The notes under the pieces were generated by a model. It did no database searches. It worked only from the letters and a program-made list of their open reading frames with translations, and was not told where the DNA came from. Positions 37,001 through 37,648 of a DNA stretch of 64,000 bases are shown here, piece after piece. The position numbers and the translations under genes were made by a program. Source of the stretch: Eledone cirrhosa (taxonomy: Eukaryota); contig OZ024765.1 in NCBI GenBank assembly GCA_964016885.1, positions 2,480,001 to 2,544,000 on the forward strand, in the 5' to 3' direction. Numbering within the stretch: the first letter of the stretch is position 1; each line of letters starts with the position of its first letter.

Positions 37001-37080
37001 AGCAAAAATGTAGAGGCGAGAGTGGATGGTTTTAATTGTTTTGGTGTGTTGTTAATTTGTTTGTTTGTTAATGGCAGCAA
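34060..37080 (-). CDS. LINE ORF2: APE endonuclease plus reverse transcriptase (frame is open from 37197)
   Basis: EN motifs LTETHL, YRPP, GDFN, LDL, SDH. RT motifs [41 protein letters not shown]1-type C-terminus [13 protein letters not shown]...[10 protein letters not shown]. The track start codon is TTG. Confidence 0.96.
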
Positions 37081-37648
37081 TGGGAGTTTGTGCAGTGGGG
37101 TGATAGTGGAGGGTGGTGCTGGGTGATAGCTCGAATGTTTTTTTCCAGTTCTTTTGCCAGATTCATTATGGCTAAAAAAGAGGAAGAAGTTTCCTGTTTA
37201 GAAGACTGTTGGTGACTGTGGTAGTGGTTATTTTTATGTAGGTTATGGTTTTTGTTTTTGCTTTTATTTTTAATTTTATTTTCATTTATCCGACGGGTCC
37301 CCGGGAGATGGGTAAAGGGACAATCCCGGTCTAAACACAATCTGTCTCGCAGGGAAAAACGGCAGATTTGTGGATTCCTTGTTTGAGTTATTGGTGGTTG
37401 TGTTGGTGTTAAATTAGAGTATGTATTATGGTGGTGGCTGTTTGTGGGGATAGATCGTTTTGTCCTAGGTAAATGGGTGAATTTGCAGCCACTATCCGTA
37501 CATATTCTATAGCGTAGAGAGTAGCGGCAAATGATGGGGTTTCGAGTGGGTGGGTATGTGGGTGTGGGTGTTGTGAGAGGTGTAGATGATGGTTTGGGTA
37601 GGATTTGACGACCTTTGTGGACTGTGGGAGGGAGAGTTCTTGTTCTGA
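37068..37648 (-). CDS. LINE ORF1 C-terminal part with two CCCH zinc fingers
   Basis: [19 protein letters not shown] and [19 protein letters not shown] (C-x8-C-x4-C-x3-H). The upstream part of the track ORF is microsatellite. Confidence 0.8.

Follow-up and report, generated by a model that had tools for sequence, protein, structure and literature searches.

A conserved slippery heptamer as the probable -1 frameshift site for reverse transcriptase expression in a young CR1-like LINE family

The window analysed here is a stretch of 64,000 nucleotides whose minus strand carries a 5'-truncated copy of a young CR1-like LINE. The hallmarks of such elements are present: ORF2 encodes an APE endonuclease (EN) followed by a reverse transcriptase (RT), and the copies are dispersed, subject to 5' truncation, provided with a simple 3' tail and without LTRs. 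The 5' and 3' ends are unlike each other, and the tail is a 10-nt tandem repeat. The best PDB match of ORF2 is LINE-1 ORF2p (E 8e-22). A Pfam search of ORF2 at E <= 1 returned endonuclease and RT families only, with RNase H and a C-terminal zinc knuckle absent, and Pfam placed no protease or integrase domain there. Based on this anatomy, the element likely belongs to CR1, although an ORF2 without RNase H or a C-terminal zinc knuckle is a property of L2-type clades too. The features of the copy, all on the minus strand, are as follows.

33973..37647, minus strand: 5'-truncated copy of the young CR1-like LINE, its ends placed against a full-length copy, with a (TA)n microsatellite on both sides
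37068..37646, minus strand: 3' half of ORF1, with its stop codon TAA at 37070-37068
37473..37532, minus strand: first CCCH-type motif, C-x7-C-x4-C-x3-H, from the ORF1 translation (Pfam CCCH matches fall below the cut-off)
37305..37364, minus strand: second CCCH-type motif, from the ORF1 translation, aligning with the CCCH motifs of relatives
37198..37200, minus strand: TAA closing the -1 frame just 5' of the slippery site
37173..37179, minus strand: U_UUU_UUA heptamer in ORF1 phase, encoding Phe-Leu, the predicted -1 shift site
37156..37172, minus strand: GCCA/TGGC 4-bp hairpin, 0 nt after U_UUU_UUA (z about 0)
37137..37143, minus strand: A_AAA_AAC heptamer in ORF1 phase, not conserved
37068..37197, minus strand: ORF1/ORF2 overlap of 130 nt, ORF2 in the -1 frame
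34060..37197, minus strand: ORF2, 1045 codons from stop to stop, with a low-complexity linker, APE endonuclease and reverse transcriptase (Pfam PF03372, PF14529, PF00078); stop codon at 34062-34060
36331..37014, minus strand: APE-type endonuclease domain (Pfam PF03372, aa 82-286)
36999, minus strand: Asn of endonuclease motif I (FLLNAQG)
36754..36756, minus strand: earliest ORF2-frame ATG, at codon 148 and 81 codons downstream of the motif I Asn
34714..35445, minus strand: reverse transcriptase domain (PF00078, E 4e-31, aa 585-828)
33973..34059, minus strand: short 3' UTR, at the end of which a 10-nt repeat stands twice in tandem (two to three times in other members)

Outside the element, a 1.6-kb trinucleotide-type microsatellite array at 30920-32520 gives rise to long spurious open frames.

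The first-pass annotation had proposed that ORF2 is expressed by -1 frameshifting, and its description of the junction holds in every coordinate. The ORF2 frame is open from 37197, right after the TAA at 37200-37198, and runs for 1045 codons to its stop. It overlaps ORF1, which ends at the TAA at 37070-37068, by 130 nt in the -1 frame, and it lacks an AUG until inside the endonuclease, where the ATG at 36756 falls within the PF03372 span. Both of the heptamers named at that stage, T TTT TTA (37179-37173) and A AAA AAC (37143-37137), lie in ORF1 phase. The junction thus combines an in-phase X_XXY_YYZ heptamer with a -1 frame that is open into a coding region without a start of its own, as expected of a -1 signal. 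Of 20000 synonymous recodings of the overlap peptide, however, 7271 contained at least one in-phase heptamer and 80 contained two. A single heptamer in a single copy is therefore weak evidence, and the case for frameshifting rests on conservation.

A DNA search of the host genome (3.0 Gb) gave 1178 candidate matches, and all 40 that were scored are 100% identical to the window over 36900-37500. By an exact-pattern count, the T6-AG junction is present in 599 genomic copies. The family is young and, putatively, very active. In full-length copies the 5' UTR is AUG-free and ORF1 has one AUG. This ORF1 of ~391 aa comprises a polyQ tract, two CCCH-type motifs, a Phe-Leu (FL) dipeptide with a predicted helix, and a short tail, and its N-terminus gives a weak Myb/SANT-like match (E 0.002). 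The -1 frame is open for 1037 codons past the heptamer in four of the six full-length copies fetched, the other two having internal breaks, and the predicted ORF1-EN-RT fusion from intact full-length copies is 1391-1394 aa long. The family shows neither an upstream in-frame AUG nor a single fused ORF, and the first heptamer is kept. Since the family is young, its EN-RT must come from this overlapping layout; to judge from the copies, the -1 overlap is the layout of the family and not a product of decay. The 5' UTR of the full-length copies (L007:39-757) measures ~720 nt and includes an AT-rich unit of ~230 nt present as a tandem pair, with a donor-like GTGAGT in both copies. The polyQ tract of ORF1 differs in length among copies.

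Identity among young copies is uninformative on selection, and older relatives were therefore sought. With a distant ORF1 homologue (P0001) as the query, 30 diverged genomic loci were recovered, in 28 of which the EN start could be aligned (~70% identity). T TTT TTA is intact in 24 of these 28 older copies, so that the conservation called for by the first-pass annotation is found for this heptamer. It is not found for the other: A AAA AAC is present in 2/28, with 19/28 reading G AAA AAC, and A_AAA_AAC was dropped as a shift site. An in-phase site together with an open -1 frame was seen in 15 of the 30 loci, the others being truncated or decayed. Furthermore, a distant EN query uncovered a second young family in the same genome, its ORF2 being 33% identical to that of the first. 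This family also has a CCCH-type ORF1, a -1 overlap, AAT TTT TTA in phase and no AUG before the EN motif. Its ORF1 (L074:569-770), like that of the first family (L007:758-1200), opens with a weak Myb/SANT-like domain (E 0.016).

Relatives outside the genome came from a metagenome scan that returned 46 loci. Seventeen of these match the EN start at >=35% identity, of which L094 extends too short a distance upstream; the remaining 16 represent 13 distinct loci. In all 16 the overlap is in the -1 frame and a slippery site falls on the FL motif of ORF1. In a set of 16 intact rows, the site reads T TTT TTA in 8, G TTT TTA in 2 and G GAT TTT in 6. G_UUU_UUA, the form found in 2/16 rows, is an imperfect heptamer. 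The FL anchors were located by eye; in a protein-only alignment of segments cut around FL beforehand, the motif shares one column in 13/13 rows. The interval from the site to the EN motif I Asn is free of ATG in 11 of 13 rows, the exceptions being L105 and L107, which have in-frame ATGs upstream of the EN motif. In an EN tree, 15 such rows are set apart from four outgroups at 96/96, with the inner branches mostly open, long branches flagged and the loci unnamed. The other 29 of the 46 loci (L110-L138), with <=34% EN identity over long matches or with short partial matches, stand outside these counts; the 13 of them that were inspected have no FL site, but other ORF1 types or broken frames. Protein databases gave few matches (one for ORF1, two for EN and three in a profile search). 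No natural ORF1-EN-RT fusion was seen among 1151 longer-protein candidates in a weak search with the PHD-CCCH region of a relative, and 60 pattern matches in viral contigs yielded no confirmed case.

From the site to the ORF1 stop, the -1 frame contains 0 stops against 28.6 expected in 12 lineages, whereas the stretches just upstream of the site contain 71 against 72.5 expected; these lineages share ancestry, so that probabilities multiplied over them are too small to serve as p-values, and the rows from the element's own genome were picked as intact copies. Expectations were calculated from the codon use of each element with the ORF1 peptide held fixed. The lineages span 26-71% EN identity, the near-duplicates L099, L100 and L102 and the sister subfamily L040 having been dropped. 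The absence of stops after the site, set against their normal frequency before it, indicates that the constraint begins at the site. In 21 rows, the stop that closes the -1 frame precedes the Phe codon by a median of 15 nt (range 3-111); in the window copy the frame opens 18 nt before that codon. The Phe codon of FL is TTT in 21/21 rows, while TTT TTA is used in none of 36 FL dipeptides within ORF2 bodies. FL opens a conserved predicted helix, and protein constraint accounts for the residues but not for the codons. The site thus appears to be conserved at the nucleotide level beyond protein constraint.

Taken together, these patterns argue that -1 frameshifting at U_UUU_UUA (37179-37173) probably yields an ORF1-EN-RT fusion. 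Most ribosomes would complete ORF1 (~391 aa), while a minority would slip back by one base with tRNA-Phe and tRNA-Leu on UUU UUA and read on as ...SSFL/SHNESGK.... The shifted ribosomes would make a protein of ~1390 aa containing the ORF1 domains, the linker, EN and RT, and the fraction that slips would set a low ratio of ORF2p to ORF1p. The fusion by a -1 shift, as originally proposed, gains strong comparative support; A_AAA_AAC as a shift site and the hairpin as a stimulator do not.

That hairpin had itself been described as weak, and correctly so. Folding of the sequence 3' of both window heptamers was no more stable than that of shuffles (z 0.53, -0.46, -0.30 and -0.41). Across relatives, z ranged from -2.35 to +1.90 in 21 rows folded 3' of the site, and from -1.70 to +1.44 when 150 nt were folded in 13 rows. 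When pseudoknots were scanned for in a crude way, only two of 13 rows, those of the window family and its sister, scored better than all 60 shuffles, stem 1 lying 0 nt from the site. The GCCA/TGGC hairpin is not supported as a stimulator: its z is about 0, its spacing is 0 nt, and it is kept in the A and B subfamilies of the host genome only. Neither folding nor the crude pseudoknot scan therefore revealed a stimulator, hairpin or pseudoknot, at 5-9 nt past the site, a feature that is usual, though not universal, for -1 signals. Because no cis RNA stimulator was found, the efficiency of frameshifting is predicted to be low, or else tied to the nascent peptide, a scarce tRNA or a bound protein.

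The strongest rival is termination-reinitiation, in which ribosomes end ORF1 and restart on ORF2 at a near-cognate codon near the ORF1 stop; we judge it improbable. The mechanism is known for LINEs, having been proposed for L1 and shown for SART1 with an AUG (excerpts of PMC5972666). The geometry is also suitable, in that the EN Asn codon is preceded by the ORF1 stop at a distance of 2-80 nt in 13/13 rows and an ORF2-frame CTG is located 7 nt before the ORF1 stop in all three host-genome families tested (37075-37077, minus strand, in the window). Five of 10 metagenome rows, however, have no in-frame ATG, CTG, GTG, ACG or TTG within 30 nt of the stop, and in the single TAATG of the overlap the ATG belongs to the ORF1 frame. 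Reinitiation has no need of a long open -1 frame and leaves unexplained why that frame is free of stops over the 36-96 codons that precede the ORF1 stop, and why it is closed immediately 5' of the heptamer. Nor does it account for the codons chosen at FL. As a separate observation, ORF1 ends in Cys-Cys-His or Cys-Cys-Cys at that CTG.

Less probable than reinitiation is internal, AUG-independent (IRES-like) initiation near the site, or a heptamer without any translational role. An IRES-type, non-AUG start has been raised as a possibility for the ORF2 of non-LTR elements (excerpts of PMC3894237), but no conserved structure was found here, and two slippery patterns replacing one another at a single position are more in keeping with tRNA slippage than with initiation.

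Transcriptional slippage, for which we see a smaller chance still, would have RNA polymerase insert an additional U at the T6 run, fusing ORF1 and ORF2 in a minority of transcripts. The T run is indeed conserved, and at least seven T are found in 11/599 copies. Among 10 of these that were examined, five fuse the frames by one extra base, one is +2, three are substitutions and one is a truncation point. Cis preference is established for L1 and is assumed here; under it, most insertions should bear the extra T, yet only ~1% do. A T is missing from four copies, so that the variation resembles homopolymer noise in both directions, and the G GAT TTT class of relatives has a run of only four T.

Splicing, with the T-rich run and AG as a 3' splice site joining an upstream exon in frame to ORF2, is the least probable of the rivals. 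The window family does have an acceptor-like pyrimidine tract followed by TAG, the base after the heptamer is G in both host families and in three relatives, and the 5' UTR offers a donor-like GTGAGT. Four relatives, however, lack the AG (TTA is followed by A in L095, T in L103 and C in L101 and L102). Since the 5' UTR is AUG-free, splicing from a donor there would yield no more than 32 aa in the ORF1 frame, and none of the ORF1 GT dinucleotides in the required phase shows a strong donor consensus. No spliced copies were found: the base 3 nt upstream of the putative exon differs from T in two copies, both point mutants, against 599 with T6-AG (a pattern that misses upstream exons ending in TNN). 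Four contig runs of unrecorded kind over the junction have no weight either way: the would-be acceptor ends none of the 15 joints listed (of 23), differences in depth along the contigs are no measure of expression, and the 5' UTR and first half of ORF1 lie outside their coverage.

Frameshifting at U_UUU_UUA, the preferred reading, has a close parallel in HIV-1, whose -1 site has a stimulatory stem-loop. HIV-1 gag-pol uses the same heptamer (PMC5009743, available text), and there, as in the LINE, it lies in phase near the 3' end of a first ORF of RNA-binding type, the RT being encoded in the -1 frame. The LINE differs in being a non-LTR element with an APE endonuclease, with no protease or integrase by Pfam and no stem-loop found at its predicted site. 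The second pattern at this position, G GAT TTT in 6/16 intact relatives, corresponds to the G_GAU_UUU of pea enation mosaic virus, an umbravirus (PMC5009743, available text); in the virus the 0 frame meets a stop 3 nt past the site, whereas ORF1 continues for 81-89 codons in the LINE relatives.

The window LINE resembles CR1-clade LINEs (Jockey superfamily) in its APE and RT ORF2, short 3' UTR, tandem-repeat tail and 5' truncation. The PHD was first described in CR1 ORF1s (PMC4120745, available text), while the window family has instead the weak Myb/SANT-like start. No PHD, RRM or esterase domain was found in the window family, and weak, below-cut-off PHD matches occur in the ORF1 of 3/5 relatives. 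The Myb/SANT-like start of the young families, as opposed to the weak PHD of the metagenome relatives, suggests a swap of the N-terminal domain. The CCCH-type ORF1 is absent from the CR1 classification, the accessible portion of PMC4120745 giving 0 matches for 'CCCH' or 'frameshift'.

How LINEs translate ORF2 has been called an open and important question (review PMC3894237, in the part available). L1 and SART1, like the window LINE, have a bicistronic RNA on which ORF2 must somehow be reached. In both, ORF2 has an AUG, which comes after a 63-nt spacer in L1 and in an overlapping stop-start in SART1 (excerpts of PMC5972666 and PMC3894237); the window LINE has a 130-nt overlap and no ORF2 AUG. 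The first-pass annotation had contrasted the junction with the reinitiation of these best-studied LINEs, which is correct for L1 and SART1 but a little too strong for LINEs overall, as a figure legend in a review (PMC5911963, in the part available) states that the Dictyostelium APE-type non-LTR elements TRE5-A and TRE3-A both require a -1 frameshift for ORF2. These amoeba elements target tRNA genes and have a C-terminal zinc finger, and the legend names neither a shift site nor an assay. Other solutions for LINEs include 2A skipping in some single-ORF elements and a frameshift inside HeT-A gag (from available portions of PMC5009743, PMC3894237, PMC5972666, PMC5911963, PMC5006619, PMC4120745, PMC10294476, PMC3708506 and PMC4700185). 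The available text of the review PMC5009743 gives no -1 gag-pol-type case for LINEs, and PMC13343379 gives 0 matches for frameshift, overlap or slippery. No published description of a slippery site in CR1-like LINEs was found, and an older note may exist, e.g., in subscription papers, Repbase Reports or supplements. Frameshifting by -1 is thus a known mechanism whose use in CR1-like LINEs we found undescribed in the literature searched.

A wider proposal, to which we would give slightly less than an even chance, is that a clade of animal CR1-like LINEs makes its RT as ORF1-EN-RT by -1 frameshifting without a downstream RNA structure. Either bare slippage would suffice, or the CCCH-finger ORF1 protein or nascent peptide would tune the shift as a feedback on the level of enzyme, and the site would have switched between two viral-type heptamers at one position. 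If true, the active protein would be ~350 aa longer than the ORF2 annotation and would carry the ORF1 domains on EN-RT, changing the picture of cis preference and RNP assembly for this clade and adding stimulator-poor natural -1 sites from animal genomes. The family offers an exact seven-base prediction that can be tested with a standard reporter.

Several smaller observations accompany these results. In both young families the terminal short tandem repeats run straight into (TA)n (33973 and 37647 in the window; L149, L151, L152 and L154-L156), and the presence of (TA)n at the ends of both suggests microsatellite targeting. A few copies (L143, L148) have one extra T in the heptamer run, which places ORF1 and ORF2 in one frame across the junction and is either real or an assembly error. 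Finally, members of a more distant LINE group (L122:1080-1086 and L123:1069-1075; EN 26-28% identical) carry A AAA AAC in phase, at 3 and 36 nt past the point where the -1 frame opens. It sits in a shared ORF1 motif, SKNL, with an ORF2-frame ATG four codons later, and may be a parallel -1 site.
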